Positions 2,163 to 32,599 of a DNA stretch of 64,000 nt are shown here, piece by piece. Under the pieces are notes generated by a model, which did no database searches, was not told where the DNA came from, and saw only the letters and a list, made by a program, of their open reading frames with translations. Made by a program: the position numbers and the translations under genes. Location: the NCBI GenBank assembly GCA_025830695.1, contig GCA_025830695.1_4111.1; one strand, given 5' to 3'. Numbering within the stretch: the first letter of the stretch is position 1; each line of letters starts with the position of its first letter. This DNA comes from a phage.

Positions 2163-3565
<1,403 letters not shown>

Positions 3566-3650
3566 TGTTAATCTCCAATCTTATTGTTATTTTTATAAAG
3601 TATTTACCCAATTTTACGTTTTACATAGTTTATATGGAGAAAGAAGTAAT

Positions 3651-4953
<1,303 letters not shown>

Positions 4954-4980: not shown

Positions 4981-6324
4981 ATGATGAGTAAAATTAAGCT
5001 TACGGATAAGCAACAAGAAATCTTTGATGATTTTATAGATCGTGTTTACAACTATGCAGGTAAAACAATTTCAGTTTTATCTGCACCAGCAGGAACTGGA
5101 AAAACATTCACTACTGCTGAGATTGTAAAAGCACTATGTAAAAATTATAATATTGCAGTAACTTCACCTACACATAAAGCCAATGCTGTTATTCGTAATA
5201 TGCTAATTAATAATGCTGGTCTTACTAAGGAAGATGCACAAGTCAGTACTATACACTCTTTTTTAGGATTAAAATTAGTATATGAAAAGAATCGTCAAGT
5301 ACTGAAGCATGATCCACAAAGTAAAGTTAGTAATACTAACGTTGACATTCTTATTGTTGATGAGTGTAGTATGATTTCAGATGAACTATTCCAGCACATA
5401 CAAGACCAATTGTGGCGTGTCCGTCGAGCAGTTTTATTCATTGGTGATCGTTGTCAATTGCCTCCAGTTGAGTCAGAAGGAACAATGGGCGAGACTAAAT
5501 TGTCTCCTACGTTTGATGTACCTGTTCAATATGAGTTAACTGAGGTTTTACGACAAGCATTAGATAATCCGATTCTGGCAGTTGCAACTGCTATTCGTGA
5601 GTGTATTGGAACTAGTAAAAATCCATTTGATATTATGCACCAAACATATGGTTTAAGCACTATTACACCTATTGATGATGAAGATTTGTTTTTGAATGTT
5701 TATCGTGAATTCATTATGGAAAACAAGGGGTCATCTAAAAAAATATTTGATTTCGTAAATGAAAATAAAATCTTAGCATATACTAACTATAGAGTTAATT
5801 TGGCTAATATCTACATTAGAAGTCAACTATTTGAAGTACCAGATGAATTTACTAAAGGTGAGCCAATTGTTTTTGAAAGCATAACTGAGAATAGTCCATA
5901 TGTAGTACAACAAATTATACAATGTCCTGAAGTAAAACGTGAAAGTTTCATGGGAATAGATTGTTGGCAATTCCGTTTACCTAATGGTAGTTATATTTTA
6001 GGTGTAGGACCAGAAACAAGAATTGCAATGGACGAAAAACTTGATAAACTTGTTAAGGATATTGAGAAAAAAGAAATAAATCCATTGACAAAGAAACCAT
6101 ATATGTGGCAGGATTACTATGTAATTAAGAACAAATTACATATCATCAATTATCCTTATGCAACCACTGTTCATAAATCACAAGGAAGTACTTTTGATAA
6201 CATTTGGTTTGATACTGATTTTATTGAACGTATTGGTACAAATGATACTAAGTGTAGAATTTTATACACTGCCATGACACGCCCACGCTATAGTGTTATG
6301 TTGAGGCAAAATGCACGATTCTAA
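4981..6324 (+). CDS. Dda/RecD-like SF1 DNA helicase
   Basis: Walker A SAPAGTGKT, Walker B IVDECSM, C-terminal TVHKSQGSTFD. Start chosen after GAGGGA. Confidence 0.8.
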   Translation: MMSKIKLTDKQQEIFDDFIDRVYNYAGKTISVLSAPAGTGKTFTTAEIVKALCKNYNIAVTSPTHKANAVIRNMLINNAGLTKEDAQVSTIHSFLGLKLVYEKNRQVLKHDPQSKVSNTNVDILIVDECSMISDELFQHIQDQLWRVRRAVLFIGDRCQLPPVESEGTMGETKLSPTFDVPVQYELTEVLRQALDNPILAVATAIRECIGTSKNPFDIMHQTYGLSTITPIDDEDLFLNVYREFIMENKGSSKKIFDFVNENKILAYTNYRVNLANIYIRSQLFEVPDEFTKGEPIVFESITENSPYVVQQIIQCPEVKRESFMGIDCWQFRLPNGSYILGVGPETRIAMDEKLDKLVKDIEKKEINPLTKKPYMWQDYYVIKNKLHIINYPYATTVHKSQGSTFDNIWFDTDFIERIGTNDTKCRILYTAMTRPRYSVMLRQNARF

Positions 6325-6407
6325 AAGACTAAATGTTATACGTAAATATTTTTGATTTTTAATAATAAATAATCAAAAGTGTTTTGTATTATGGAGAAGA
6401 ATATACA

Positions 6408-6974
6408 ATGAACAATTTACTACAAGTATTTAAAATTGAAGTTGCAGGGACGAACCTAGATAATATCCCATATTATATGTATGGTGATTATGATTCATCT
6501 TCCCCAACAACCGCACCGACTGACCAGCAAACTATTGATAAGTCAATTGCACTTTTGCGTTACCTACAACTTTCTCGTTTGCTTTCAACTTATTCAGTAC
6601 CAGTTTATAGCAATGTTGAATTTGCTACACCAGGAACTGCAAAAACGATTCCAACTGGTGCAACAATCACCGTTGGATATATTAGTTATCAACCTTTTCT
6701 TAGTACTTTGAGTGTTGAAGAACAAGCAGCACTAACTACTGAAGATATGAAAACAGCAAAAGCTGCTGAGATTATCCAAACACTAATCAATGATTCATTG
6801 AAAGGTAATGGCACTAATGCACTAGAAAATGAAGAAATTACTGTACAAAAAACCATACAACGTATCAAGAATGCTCTTACTACGAGTACTGTTGATTTCA
6901 TTGAGTATGAGAACGTGTATCTTAATGTTCCTTCTGTTTCTGATGCATCTGTAGTATCTTACGTTAAATTATAA
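6408..6974 (+). CDS. Hypothetical protein
   Basis: Track ORF 6384..6974. ATG 6408 follows GGAGAAG. Confidence 0.6.
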   Translation: MNNLLQVFKIEVAGTNLDNIPYYMYGDYDSSSPTTAPTDQQTIDKSIALLRYLQLSRLLSTYSVPVYSNVEFATPGTAKTIPTGATITVGYISYQPFLSTLSVEEQAALTTEDMKTAKAAEIIQTLINDSLKGNGTNALENEEITVQKTIQRIKNALTTSTVDFIEYENVYLNVPSVSDASVVSYVKL

Positions 6975-6997
6975 TTTTATAACATGGAGTTCTTGAC

Positions 6998-7192
6998 ATG
7001 ACTGACAAAACATTTTATGATCGTATTATTGAAGACAAGGGAGTTTTTGATAAGGTAGTTTATGACCTAGAACTTATGATCAAAGACGCACCGAACCCCC
7101 GTGTGCGAACCCAAGCAGAATTTGCAAAAACTTATCTTGTTCAAGTTCAAGCAATCTGTGAAGCAATTAAAAAACACAATGATAGTGCTTGA
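6998..7192 (+). CDS. Hypothetical protein (64 aa)
   Basis: Track ORF with GGAG upstream. Confidence 0.55.
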   Translation: MTDKTFYDRIIEDKGVFDKVVYDLELMIKDAPNPRVRTQAEFAKTYLVQVQAICEAIKKHNDSA

Positions 7193-7217
7193 CAGAACTA
7201 ATGTTCTATCCTATAAT
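7189..7217 (+). promoter_or_regulatory. sigma70-like promoter
   Basis: TTGACA (7189-7194), 17 nt, TATAAT (7212-7217). Confidence 0.7.
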
Positions 7218-7261
7218 TACTATCGAACAAAACATTAAAATCATATTGGAGCTTTTATTAC

Positions 7262-8324
<1,063 letters not shown>

Positions 8325-24231: not shown

Positions 24232-25368
24232 ATGTCCGAGAAAGAAATCAATCCTAAAAAAGCATCCACCGCAGCTAAATCAGCAAAACGCACTACTAAA
24301 ACTGCGTCTAAAGGTCATACAATTGATGCAAGTGATATTTTTAACCAAACTACAAAATCACTACCAGTACTGAAAGATGTTAAGGGAAATACTATGTCTC
24401 TAACAGTTCAAAACATCAATACTGTTGGTACAACTGCTGGTGCTGCTGTTGGGCGTTTGGCTGATGAAATTATGTCTAAAGTTAATGTAACGGATGACAA
24501 TACCGAGTTTGGTAAATCAATCACCACAATTCTTACGTTGACTCGTGCAGTTGATATTGATAGTCTTCAAGAAGATAAATCAATTGTTGGTCGTATTAAG
24601 AAATTCTTTGTTAATGCTCAACAGAAAGTAGGTGATCAGTACAAAAACAGTAAAGAGCAAATTGACGAAATTATGAAAACTCTTCAAACTGGTATTAATC
24701 GCCAGCACGGAGAATGTGAATGGCTTGATAAAGCATATAATGAAAACAAAGAATATTTGTTTGAATTACGTGATACATTAGTTGGTTTAGAAGAAGTAAC
24801 TAAAACACAAGATGCATTATTATTAGAAATGCAAGCAGACAAAAATGTAGACTCTTTTGCTATTCAAGAGCAAAAGATGATTTGTGAAGCACTTTCTAAA
24901 CAAGAAGATAAGATTCGTCGTCTTATCATGATGTGCGAGCTAAGTGGTCCACGTTTGATGAGTATGAAAAAAGTAAACTTGAACACTGTTTCTAAGTTTG
25001 AAGATTTAAAATCTGTTGTTATTCCAGCATGGAAGTCTCAATTGGCTGAACAGTTAATTTCCGAGCGTCAACGTAAGGATAATGAACTAGGCAATCTAAT
25101 TGATAATGAGACAAACCGTCTTTTGGAAACTAACTCTAAAATGGTTGCAGCAAATATGTTGGACGCAGCAAAGGCAAACAACCGTGGTATTGTGGATATT
25201 AAAACCTTGCGTAATGTACATAAAACGATGATTGACAGTATTGAAGCAGTTATTGAAGAAGAGAAAAAAGGTAAATTGGAACGTGAACGTGCTAAACAGG
25301 AAATTGCCCAACTTTCCTATGAACTGGAAGACACTCTTCGTGAAATTGCCGAAAAAGCTAACAAGTAA
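24232..25368 (+). CDS. TelA-like (toxic anion resistance family) protein
   Basis: About 378 aa, all-helical. Size and pattern (LTRAVDIDSL...KKFF...QIDEI...L....) fit the TelA/KlaA family as I recall it. Confidence 0.5.
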   Translation: MSEKEINPKKASTAAKSAKRTTKTASKGHTIDASDIFNQTTKSLPVLKDVKGNTMSLTVQNINTVGTTAGAAVGRLADEIMSKVNVTDDNTEFGKSITTILTLTRAVDIDSLQEDKSIVGRIKKFFVNAQQKVGDQYKNSKEQIDEIMKTLQTGINRQHGECEWLDKAYNENKEYLFELRDTLVGLEEVTKTQDALLLEMQADKNVDSFAIQEQKMICEALSKQEDKIRRLIMMCELSGPRLMSMKKVNLNTVSKFEDLKSVVIPAWKSQLAEQLISERQRKDNELGNLIDNETNRLLETNSKMVAANMLDAAKANNRGIVDIKTLRNVHKTMIDSIEAVIEEEKKGKLERERAKQEIAQLSYELEDTLREIAEKANK

Positions 25369-25371
25369 TAG

Positions 25372-25400
25372 TTGACATATGAGTGCGTTTTTAATATAAT
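25372..25400 (+). promoter_or_regulatory. sigma70-like promoter nested in a terminator hairpin
   Basis: TTGACA (25372-25377), 17 nt, TATAAT (25395-25400). The -10 box lies in the loop of the 25381-25419 hairpin. Confidence 0.65.
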
Positions 25401-25424
25401 CTTATTGAAAACGCACTCTTTTTA
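25381..25424 (+). terminator. Rho-independent terminator
   Basis: gagtgcgtttt (25381-25391) pairs with aaaacgcactc (25409-25419), followed by ttttt. Confidence 0.7.
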
Positions 25425-25447: not shown

Positions 25448-26137
25448 ATGAAACGTCGTCATATTAGTGTTGATATTGAAGCTCTTGGAACACCTGAACT
25501 TTCCGGTTATGATATTATTATCCCAAATTACGCAGCAGTAGTAGTTCCAAGTAAACCTGAAAATGACATTCGTCAGTTCTTATATATTAAATTACCATAC
25601 CAGGATCAAGTTGCTGCTGGTTTAAAATCAGACGCAGGTGCAATGGATTTTTGGATGAATACATGTCAGAAAGAATACCCTAATGCATATTCTGAAGTTG
25701 CCAGTACTATGAAACTCAAAGCACCTGAACTGTATGGACCGAATGGTCAATCACGACGATTTTTTGCATACAGTAGTATTGTTGATTTCTGGAAAGAATT
25801 ACGTTACAATGATTATGGTGAAGAAGTTCCTCATTCAGTCTGGGGCAACGGATGTAACTTCGATTGTAGTATTTTACAAGCAAACCATTTAAAACTAATG
25901 AACGCTGGTGAGTTGTGGAAGTATGATGCACCTGAAAATGCACGCACATTGAAACGTTTATTGAATGAAGAAGCTCGTATTGAAATGGATGAAATCGTTT
26001 CGGTACAGTTGGATAAATTTATCAGATATGCAAATACGTGTGGGATTAATGGGTTGGAGTTACATCACCCACTGTTTGATGCAGCACGTGAAGCAATCCA
26101 GATTTCATTCTGTCTAAACAAGCTTAAAATGGATTAA
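25448..26137 (+). CDS. DEDDh 3'-5' exonuclease (DnaQ/DexA-like)
   Basis: ExoI VDIEALG, ExoII WGNGCNFD, ExoIII HHPLFDAAREA. Confidence 0.65.
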   Translation: MKRRHISVDIEALGTPELSGYDIIIPNYAAVVVPSKPENDIRQFLYIKLPYQDQVAAGLKSDAGAMDFWMNTCQKEYPNAYSEVASTMKLKAPELYGPNGQSRRFFAYSSIVDFWKELRYNDYGEEVPHSVWGNGCNFDCSILQANHLKLMNAGELWKYDAPENARTLKRLLNEEARIEMDEIVSVQLDKFIRYANTCGINGLELHHPLFDAAREAIQISFCLNKLKMD

Positions 26138-27795: not shown

Positions 27796-27819
27796 GGGAG
27801 TACTTTGTACTCCCCTTTT
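27796..27819 (+). terminator. Rho-independent terminator
   Basis: gggagta-ctttg-tactccc followed by c-tttt. Confidence 0.75.
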
Positions 27820-28988: not shown

Positions 28989-29342
28989 ATGCTAATTTAT
29001 TTGAGTGTTCTTGTTATTTCATTACTGGTATCATTAGCAGTACTGAAAGCTGTTGCCATCGGTCGTAGTAAAATTGACAGTACTGAAACGAGTTCCGTTC
29101 TAGATTTGATTATGGATCATCCTAAAGTCTGTGGTATTATTGTATTGTTTGTTATTCTGATTAATACGTATATTGTCAGGGATCATTTATATAATATGTA
29201 TGATTGTAGTGTTAGATCTATATCACAAGGTGTTGAAACTGACTATAGCTGGTACTATGAGAAATGTAGATTTAAAAATCAGCATGGTATTTGGGTTGAT
29301 TTTGACAAACTACGTGGAACTCCTTCAGGAGAAGAAGAATAA
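28989..29342 (+). CDS. Membrane protein (2 TM)
   Basis: Track ORF. MLIYLSVLVISLLVSLAVL and VCGIIVLFVILINTYIV. Confidence 0.6.
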   Translation: MLIYLSVLVISLLVSLAVLKAVAIGRSKIDSTETSSVLDLIMDHPKVCGIIVLFVILINTYIVRDHLYNMYDCSVRSISQGVETDYSWYYEKCRFKNQHGIWVDFDKLRGTPSGEEE

Positions 29343-29344
29343 TT

Positions 29345-29836
29345 ATGTTTGAGTTCCCAGAAGAGTCATTTGACTTTATTGACCCTACTGATGATGGATA
29401 CCGACACATTAACATTTATAGTAAAGCTAGAACTAAGTTAGGTAGAGATCTATCTAACTTTTCTTCACATAGCTTCACACTTGAGCCATATGGTTGGTTC
29501 CCTTCAGTTGAAACATTTTACTTTTGGTTTTTAACTGGGCAAAAACATGATGACCTTAGAAAAGTATCTGGTGCAGCAGCAAAAGCAGCCGCTAACAAAT
29601 ATATGCATGATCGAATTGAAATGACGGATGATTGTATTTCTATTATTCAAGATGCTATTTGTGCTAAGATAATTCAAAATCCAGAGTTAGCCGAAAGATT
29701 AAGAAAAAGCAAGTTACCTTTTTACCATTACTATGTATATGGTGGTAAAGTTGTAGATGTATCCGACGAACATGATTGGTTTGTTAAAACATTCGAATAT
29801 ATAAGAACGGTGTTAAAGGAAAACTATAATGGGTAA
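29345..29836 (+). CDS. NADAR (YbiA/DUF1768)-like protein
   Basis: LSNFSSHSFTLEPYGWFPSVETFYFW...ICAKIIQNPELAERLRKS resembles the NADAR pattern (SNF....F...G..Y.S.EH.YQ...KF.QNP.L...LL.T). Confidence 0.4.
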   Translation: MFEFPEESFDFIDPTDDGYRHINIYSKARTKLGRDLSNFSSHSFTLEPYGWFPSVETFYFWFLTGQKHDDLRKVSGAAAKAAANKYMHDRIEMTDDCISIIQDAICAKIIQNPELAERLRKSKLPFYHYYVYGGKVVDVSDEHDWFVKTFEYIRTVLKENYNG

Positions 29837-30107
29837 ATGTTGGGTATGCTTCAAGGTGTTTGATGAAGAATATGAAATAATATTAGATGTATTGCCACAG
29901 CAGTACATGGTGTGTAATGAAAAATACAAATTGGACACCTACCCGACCCCCAAGTACATGGGAATATGTCCTTTGTGTGATGCAAATGGCGTGTCCAATA
30001 GTGAGATTTCATTCACTAACCAAGCCACAACTAACTGTGTATCTGGGTATATAAGAGAGAATCGAGAATATTTTATTAGGAGATTATATGAACGACAAAA
30101 TCTTTGA
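29829..30107 (+). CDS. Cys-rich small protein (possible zinc ribbon)
   Basis: CWVC...CPLCDANG pairs. Confidence 0.55.
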   Translation: MGKCWVCFKVFDEEYEIILDVLPQQYMVCNEKYKLDTYPTPKYMGICPLCDANGVSNSEISFTNQATTNCVSGYIRENREYFIRRLYERQNL

Positions 30108-30900: not shown

Positions 30901-31232
30901 GTGAAGATAGTAAAGAGTATATTTTACGTTGTTCTTGTGGCGATAAAATGGAGCATTGCGTTCACATTGCACAATTTGACTTGACAGAGGAATATGGAGA
31001 TGATAAACTTGGTCAATGTCTGATAAGTATGCGTTTAAATCCTTTTTTAAAATGGTATAACCGTGTATGGGTTGCAGTAAAGTATGTTTTTGGTGTAAAC
31101 GACTATCAATATGTAGAAGCAACAATTGATGTTGACATTCTAAAAGAAGTTGTGTTACAATTAGAAGATACTAGAACTGATGAGGTTAAAAAAGAACAAA
31201 GAGAAAAACGTACTGATGTGAAGGTTTTATGA
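30897..31232 (+). CDS. Hypothetical protein
   Basis: Track ORF with ATGA overlap. Confidence 0.6.
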   Translation: MSEDSKEYILRCSCGDKMEHCVHIAQFDLTEEYGDDKLGQCLISMRLNPFLKWYNRVWVAVKYVFGVNDYQYVEATIDVDILKEVVLQLEDTRTDEVKKEQREKRTDVKVL

Positions 31233-31423
31233 GTACTGAACTTTATGAAAAAAAGTACTGTACAAATTGCTCAACTGAGTATACAATACAAGGTATGTTG
31301 ATTTGTACAATATGTCAGTCAAAGAAATCAGCAACTTTCATCGTTGATGATAGATTTGGTGATTTGAAACAGTTTAAAGCAAACCGCAATCTTCGTATTT
31401 TTAGCAATCTAAATAAGGAATAA
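31229..31423 (+). CDS. Small Cys4 protein (possible zinc ribbon)
   Basis: CTNC...CTIC. ATGA overlap. Confidence 0.55.
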   Translation: MSTELYEKKYCTNCSTEYTIQGMLICTICQSKKSATFIVDDRFGDLKQFKANRNLRIFSNLNKE

Positions 31424-32575: not shown

Positions 32576-32599
32576 TGCCCCGATCTTCGGGGCATTTTT
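32576..32599 (+). terminator. GC-stem hairpin plus T-run (terminator or 5'-UTR stem-loop)
   Basis: gcccc...ggggc stem followed by a-ttttt, 20 nt before the next start codon. Confidence 0.55.

Follow-up and report, generated by a model that had tools for sequence, protein, structure and literature searches.

Identity and fold of the 163-residue protein

Does a small phage gene whose closest ortholog is annotated in GenBank as "hypothetical protein" (YP_009150746.1 of phage PBECO4) belong to the NADAR superfamily, and if so, what might it do for the phage that carries it? We addressed this question for the ATG-to-TAA open reading frame (ORF) of 163 amino acids at 29345..29836 on the + strand, as given by the ORF listing of a 64,000-nucleotide stretch of phage DNA (contig GCA_025830695.1_4111.1 of assembly GCA_025830695.1; the whole stretch is called the window below), which matches PBECO4/121Q-like jumbo coliphages (genus Asteriusvirus) at 99.9-100% identity. 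The N-terminus of the orthologs, MFEFPEE, supports the ATG at 29345 as the start. An earlier note on the window had called a possible NADAR (YbiA/DUF1768) domain here from two strings, both of which are present in the translation (LSNFSSHSFTLEPYGWFPSVETFYFW, residues 36-61, and QDAICAKIIQNPELAERLRKS, residues 102-122), and at the level of domain identity the call was borne out by profile searches, a structure model and profile-profile alignment with hhalign. The protein almost certainly belongs to the NADAR superfamily (YbiA fold). Our best explanation overall, which we hold with about even confidence, is that it is a stand-alone NADAR-superfamily enzyme, likely a counter-defence ADP-ribose N-glycohydrolase.

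A phmmer search of the protein against the PDB sequences gave no match, and a family profile, built from an alignment of 27 homologs and run against all 177,635 distinct PDB sequences, retrieved two chains only, those of the Phytophthora NADAR 8BAU (E 1.1e-4) and of E. coli YbiA 2B3W (E 4.8e-4). An AlphaFold2 model computed without templates reached a pLDDT of 90.7 and a pTM of 0.84, and in a Foldseek search of this model against the PDB the three NADAR structures took ranks 1 to 3, each with a probability of 1.00. The BFVD search returned dozens of viral proteins described as 'NADAR domain-containing', ranked below the family's own members. For hhalign, an 85-sequence alignment of the family was set against the T4 gp30.3/AdfN clade (n = 108) and the YbiA clade (n = 106). 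The former gave 97.9% (E 6e-13 over 129 columns, query residues 22-156) and the latter 96.1% (E 3e-9, query residues 19-159), and the positive control, gp30.3 clade against YbiA clade, gave 97.5% (E 5e-12); the family is therefore about as distant from gp30.3 and YbiA as those two are from each other.

Searches with hidden Markov models (HMMs) gave a similar placement. The family HMM matched 105 of the 108 gp30.3 sequences and 99 of the 106 YbiA sequences at E ≤ 1e-3, with no score above 33 bits, as against 165-235 bits inside the family, and judged by these cross-family and within-family scores the family is a distinct clade. When run on the 357 six-frame ORFs of the window, the gp30.3-clade and YbiA-clade HMMs each put the ORF at 29345 first (E 0.0056 and 0.0022, respectively), and neither revealed a second NADAR there. 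The protein matched phrog_652 (5.9e-45), as did T4 gp30.3 (9.2e-51), and YbiA matched phrog_1017 and, more weakly, phrog_652. The label 'unknown function' that phrog_652 carries is outdated, since T4 gp30.3 is AdfN, and could become NADAR / anti-DarT.

HHpred or Pfam had been named earlier as the means of checking the domain call; the profile-profile comparison agreed with it (hhalign, above), while Pfam returned no match. PF08719 (gathering score 35.1 bits) left the query unmatched at E ≤ 10 and matched 5 of 27 relatives below threshold (best E 0.024). PF08010 (gathering score 36 bits) likewise did not match the query and gave its relatives 27 bits or less; T4 gp30.3 scored 237.5 bits on the same model. 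Because both the Pfam thresholds and the conserved lysine discussed below fail, we file the protein in a clade sister to gp30.3, and not as a member of the gp30.3 or DarG1 family.

Active-site residues

The key glutamate of NADARs lies on helix alpha-1 (E43 in PnNADAR, E88 in the E. coli C7 enzyme, E36 in T4), where it has a ribose-positioning, catalytic role, and a diphosphate-binding lysine seven residues after it (Pn K50) is essential, the C7 K95A and T4 K43A variants being inactive (PMC11543638, PMC11257639). The last beta-hairpin supplies a further residue, for which the YbiA family has Glu, the DarT1-associated NADARs have Asp and the phage gp30.3 NADARs have His (PMC11543638, PMC11125620), and an AKKLGR loop (K75, G78, R79) shields the ADP-ribose pyrophosphate in the PnNADAR-ADPr complex (PMC11543638).

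Conservation in the family was counted over 175 domains taken from clusters at 50% identity or less. L36-S37-N38-F39 is 94-99% conserved and aligns with the LSNF of 8BAU and T4 AdfN and with the FSNF of YbiA, while E56 is the equivalent of YbiA E48 (Table 1). At the AK..GR loop the family keeps glycine (G83, 94%) and a basic residue (R/K84, 73%). H128 is 98-100% and Y129 and Y130 are 97-99% conserved, at a hairpin whose strands in the model are 129-132 and 135-138, and N23 is among the residues conserved at 97-100%. In the hhalign alignment, H128 pairs with T4 H123 (of LKH), a position held by His in 108 of 108 gp30.3-clade sequences; in the comparison with YbiA it aligns to H126, the neighbour of E125, in a register that is uncertain by one residue. 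As far as alignment can tell, H128 would be the 'phage NADAR' histidine that stands for the catalytic Glu of the YbiA family or the Asp of the DarG1 family, and the alignment and conservation of E56 and H128 together argue for a His-type NADAR like AdfN. Two motifs are peculiar to the family: DG..HINIYSKG.T.LGR in the N-terminal part and the aromatic EGYWYW of helix alpha-1.

Table 1. Positions in the window of the NADAR-like gene, its possible ribosome-binding site and the codons of its predicted active-site residues.
Feature	Position	Strand	Basis
CDS, predicted single-domain NADAR-fold protein, ortholog of PBECO4 YP_009150746.1	29345..29836	+	
Possible Shine-Dalgarno AGGAG, 13 nt upstream of ATG	29327..29331	+	Read from sequence; weak, spacing longish
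LSNF motif, codons L36-S37-N38-F39, substrate cleft, common to all NADAR clades	29450..29461	+	Alignment
E56 codon, putative catalytic-Glu equivalent	29510..29512	+	Family 175/175; alignments
L63 codon, at phosphate-binding Lys position	29531..29533	+	Alignment
K80 codon, PnNADAR K75 equivalent in AKKLGR loop	29582..29584	+	99% conserved; aligns with AKKLGR of 8BAU
H128-Y129-Y130 codons, start of last beta-hairpin	29726..29734	+	Alignment, conservation, model

Proposed activity

By analogy with characterised NADARs, the protein is probably a hydrolase acting on an ADP-ribose-type N-glycosidic bond; that it specifically reverses nucleobase ADP-ribosylation is a more tentative proposal, in which our confidence falls a little short of even. 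The ADP-ribose part of the substrate would be held in an open cleft lined by the LSNF loop, helix alpha-1, the AK..G loop and the last beta-hairpin, with E56 positioning the distal ribose and H128, on the opposite side, promoting hydrolysis of the bond from ribose C1'' to nitrogen, so that ADP-ribose would be released. In counter-defence, the likeliest role of the protein in the phage, the enzyme would strip the ADP-ribose that host toxins such as DarT1 put on the bases of replicating phage DNA (or RNA). Nucleobase reversal is ranked first because each NADAR family tested to date removes guanine-ADP-ribose from DNA and RNA in vitro (PMC12945103), because T4 AdfN and two other phage NADARs remove ADP-ribose from DNA, neutralise DarTG1 and restore phage growth (PMC11257639), and because a coliphage would meet DarTG1, which is an E. 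coli system.

Several observations weigh against this explanation. L63 replaces the +7 lysine, and the column in the 175 family sequences holds Ser in 43, Gly in 40, Leu in 39, Lys in 14 (8%) and Ala in 12; the gp30.3 clade has Lys there in 104 of 108. A lysine or arginine anywhere in residues 57-65 was found in only 19 of the 175, and no obvious co-varying substitute for the missing lysine emerged, the 15 K/R-bearing sequences showing no distinct pattern at K27, R34 and R84. The 163-residue protein has A83 and N84 where the AK..GR loop has Gly and Arg, Pn R93 is without a consistent basic counterpart in the family, and D130 and W133 lie in a five-residue deletion, which is common to the gp30.3 clade. 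Pfam gave nothing for the protein at E ≤ 10, NCBIfam and PADLOC searches gave no match, and no ADP-ribosyltransferase (ART), Macro, SLOG or NAD-pathway gene was found beside the gene in the window. Iyer et al., moreover, see the domains to which relatives of the protein are fused as acting on soluble ADP-ribose derivatives, not DNA adducts (PMC9503650).

Domain partners and alternative readings

Domain partners were tallied over 87 multidomain relatives, of which 25 carry DUF4326, 18 a YAcAr SLOG, 10 a DprA-like SLOG, 6 a Macro and 6 a DUF488-N3a domain, with single occurrences of a canonical PF08719 NADAR in tandem, a metallophosphatase and an Rv2179c-like exoribonuclease. Taken together, DUF4326 or DUF488-N3a is present in 31 and a SLOG-type partner (YAcAr, DprA-like, YpsA) in about 30, in architectures such as Macro-DUF4326-domain (P0086), DUF4326-domain-YpsA (P0057), domain-YAcAr-DUF4326 (P0120) and NADAR-domain-DUF4326 (P0096). 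The evolutionary coupling of the family to ADP-ribose-processing domains is strong. The metagenomic protein P0096 (1415 aa) has a canonical PF08719 NADAR at residues 10-143, the divergent NADAR-like domain at 548-698 and DUF4326 at 1185-1274, and the presence of both kinds in one polypeptide argues that the two types are not redundant.

Gene neighbourhoods of other homologs point in related directions. On a 117-kb phage-like contig (L008), a 392-residue ADPrib_exo_Tox/ART-family ADP-ribosyltransferase (6500-7678, - strand) is convergent with a homolog at 6001-6435, a proximity that resembles that of gene 30.3 and alt in T4, which are a few kb apart. In Robinsoniella peoriensis (NZ_JBHTNY010000008.1; L013 4030-5861), genes for a Thg1-like tRNA-His guanylyltransferase (1.4e-29), the family protein and a DUF488-N3a protein (3e-14) follow one another back to back, in an order that mirrors the P0024 fusion; the triplet hints at an RNA-repair or ADP-ribose-processing module, possibly in a prophage. 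Another homolog has a 2H phosphoesterase, a metallophosphatase and a phosphoribosyltransferase nearby.

These associations bear on the main alternative, that the same fold and chemistry serve a soluble ADP-ribose derivative and not a nucleic-acid adduct, which we consider unlikely, though a serious contender. The substrate might be an immune signal or toxin of the host, such as a cyclic ADP-ribose isomer or ADPr-1''-phosphate, or else a by-product of NAD-dependent RNA repair, and the enzyme would act in sequence with Macro and SLOG domains and with the phosphatase-like domains DUF4326 and DUF488-N3a. The partner counts above, architectures such as those of P0086 and P0057, the Robinsoniella gene order and the homolog near the phosphoesterase, metallophosphatase and phosphoribosyltransferase all speak for it, and in the view of Iyer et al. 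the NADAR, Macro, SLOG and DUF4326 domains of phages target mainly low-molecular-weight ADP-ribose derivatives (PMC9503650); the altered diphosphate-binding residues, with no +7 lysine, are also compatible with another ligand. However, all experimentally tested NADARs, three phage ones included, act on base-linked ADP-ribose in nucleic acids (PMC11257639, PMC11125620, PMC12945103), the literature consulted reports no NADAR activity on soluble ADP-ribose derivatives, and the window protein is single-domain and without such neighbours.

A bolder proposal, and a somewhat less probable one, is that the family represents a fifth NADAR clade, His-type and without the 'essential' lysine, with at least 2,000 clusters at 50% identity and a presence in ~1% of sequenced phage genomes, which combines a novel substrate with counter-defence activity. 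The rebuilt diphosphate-binding face, made of the EGYWYW helix and the N-terminal DG..HINIYSK motif, would then reflect a substrate outside the range of all NADARs studied, such as another kind of base-ADP-ribose adduct or an immune signal derived from ADP-ribose, and the activity would be paired with the DUF4326/DUF488-N3a phosphatase-like and SLOG domains.

Two further readings are less likely in view of the conservation pattern and of the K80/G/R loop that the family retains. The protein could be a catalytically dead NADAR fold, a sponge or shield that binds ADP-ribose-containing molecules or ADP-ribosylated nucleic acid, as might be suspected from the loss of the very lysine whose mutation inactivates both AdfN and the NADAR of E. 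coli C7, but we regard this as improbable: E56, H128, N23, Y129 and Y130 are 97-100% conserved over the 175 sequences, a pattern typical of an active site that has been kept, and the active gp30.3 clade uses the same Glu/His pair (PMC11257639). Marginally more improbable is an N-glycosidase for a ribosyl compound other than ADP-ribose (as YbiA acts on riboflavin-pathway intermediates) or for a modified nucleotide. The 'N-glycosidase' annotation of YbiA, a weak match of one family member to the riboflavin-intermediate N-glycosidase model TIGR02464 (E 0.02) and the altered ADP-diphosphate contacts would fit such an enzyme, yet the equivalents of the pyrophosphate-shielding K75, G78 and R79 are kept in the family (K80 in 99%, the other two at the frequencies given above), the fusion partners are domains of the ADP-ribose network, and riboflavin damage control is of no evident need to a phage. 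A chance match of a short motif in an unrelated fold, for which the lack of a direct Pfam match at E ≤ 10 might be cited, has a negligible probability and is ruled out by the profile, Foldseek, hhalign, HMM, BFVD and PHROG results.

Distribution

An exhaustive HMM search of 1.84 billion cluster representatives recovered 2,089 clusters (50% identity) at E ≤ 1e-3 and 1,651 at E ≤ 1e-10, mostly viral. By tblastn, the protein was found in 506 of 50,697 phage records, in every case annotated as hypothetical; the phages were Asteriusvirus, Alcyoneusvirus K64-1, Kuttervirus and other Ackermannviridae (CBA120 orf012, Det7, PhiSH19), jumbo phages of Erwinia, Serratia and Xanthomonas, and Vibrio phages. 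Proteins of the gp30.3 type occurred in 1,511 records, T4-like among the matches listed, and the family and the gp30.3 clade appear to occupy largely different phage groups. A tblastn search of the phages with a YbiA fragment found canonical NADARs in other phage groups. A pattern scan that covered 185,579 species of bacteria and archaea, with one genome per species, yielded only 11 loci, and a megablast search of the window gene against complete E. coli genomes gave zero matches, so that it is not a common prophage or host gene.

Setting of the gene in the window

The NADAR-like gene lies within a long run of densely packed genes of the same direction. The stop codon (TAA) of the upstream ORF is at 29340-29342, 2 nt before the ATG, and the last 8 nt of the gene are shared with the downstream ORF. 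That ORF (29829-30107, +; 92 aa) and another at 31229-31423 (+; 64 aa) are small and Cys-rich, with paired CxxC motifs (CWVC...CPLC and CTNC...CTIC) that give them a zinc-ribbon-like look; the 92-residue product had no Pfam match, and the 8-nt overlap of its ORF with the stop of the NADAR-like gene suggests translational coupling. Two GC-rich hairpins with T-runs, terminator-like in form, flank the gene at 27796-27814 and 32576-32594 (+), and the ~4.7-kb block between them, with about 12 small genes of the same direction, may be transcribed as a single unit. The region has 7 terminator-like sites, against 3.3 expected from shuffles.

A Pfam scan of the ten neighbouring ORFs gave as its sole match an Rv2179c-like exoribonuclease and found no ART domain among them, and the PBECO4 annotation lists no ART or DarT toxin gene across the whole 64-kb stretch. 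The match is a 229-residue Rv2179c-like 3'-5' exoribonuclease (25448-26137, +; Pfam 1.1e-8), and upstream of its gene is a perfect sigma-70 consensus promoter (TTGACA-17-TATAAT, 25372-25400) overlapping a 16-bp terminator-like hairpin (25381-25418). Together with the Rv2179c-like fusion in one distant NADAR-like relative, this gene may reflect a functional link. A TelA-like 'tellurite resistance' gene (24232-25368, +) lies upstream of the NADAR-like gene at a distance of about 4 kb, and the order TelA, a few genes, homolog is kept, as a conserved synteny, in a metagenomic contig (L012, TelA at 2704-3822) whose homolog is only 50% identical.

Significance

Phage NADARs have recently emerged as orphan enzymes, akin to antitoxins, that overcome the DarTG1 defence system. 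Experiments on them have so far covered the T4-like gp30.3 proteins and two others only, and the present family is a separate, much less visible clade: GenBank leaves it unannotated, Pfam, NCBIfam and PADLOC miss it, and in PHROGs it is of 'unknown function'. Its carriers are jumbo coliphages, Ackermannviridae and many other large phages. About 500 phage genome records now reading 'hypothetical protein' could be renamed NADAR-family protein. Should the family be active, counter-defence against ADP-ribosylation would reach phage groups that are considered for therapy, and a lysine regarded as essential for NADAR catalysis would be dispensable or replaceable; should its substrate differ, it would open a direct way into the little-understood DUF4326/SLOG/Macro/NADAR network that large DNA viruses carry.

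Comparison with known systems

The closest counterpart is T4 gp30.3/AdfN (PF08010, Phage_30_3), which the 163-residue protein resembles in its phrog_652 membership, in a 97.9% hhalign match over nearly the full length, in size and in being a single domain. Both have the helix alpha-1 Glu and the last-hairpin His, both lack the D130/W133 segment, and both have a C-terminal helix, the loss of which renders RB69 AdfN inactive (PMC11257639). The family nevertheless differs from T4 AdfN in that identity is ~21%, L, S or G stands in place of AdfN K43, the DG..HINIYSKG.T.LGR and EGYWYW motifs are its own, and it occurs not in T4-like phages but in Asteriusvirus and other jumbo phages, in Ackermannviridae and in Vibrio phages. 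With YbiA (2B3W) and the Phytophthora NADAR (8BAU), both of PF08719, it has in common the LSNF motif, the catalytic Glu, the AK..G loop and a K(F/I).QNP helix at 15-17% identity, whereas the +7 Lys, R93, E125, D130 and W133 are not conserved, His stands for Glu and five residues are deleted.

The DarG1/DarT1-associated NADARs (the BC4488 family, with G. lovleyi 8BAT and the E. coli C7 enzyme) plausibly catalyse the same reaction, the reversal of guanine ADP-ribosylation, and C7 K115, the counterpart of Pn K75, corresponds to the invariant K80. They differ in that the window has no adjacent DarT gene, the last strand carries His and not Asp, and an equivalent of K95 is absent. NADAR-Bas32 and NADAR-Bas60 (Johannesman et al.), orphan single-domain NADARs of lytic coliphages outside the T4 group, match the scenario proposed here for the window protein. 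DELTA-BLAST detected them as conventional proteins with a NADAR domain, and they group with the NADARs of archaea and bacteria (PMC11257639); these descriptions set them apart from the present family, which, unlike them, escapes the Pfam NADAR model.

The Macro/DUF4326/SLOG/NADAR proteins of large DNA viruses described by Iyer, Burroughs and Aravind (2021, 2022) have the same architectures as the relatives of the window protein, which is itself a bare domain, and judged from these shared architectures their surveys probably already counted the clade as 'NADAR'. The experimental literature recognises four NADAR families (PMC12945103), and the 'phage NADARs' set of Schuller et al. contains T4-like phages only; the clade described here is not among the four. 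The kind of system is thus a known one and the member divergent, and its one surprising feature is the family-wide loss of a lysine held to be essential.

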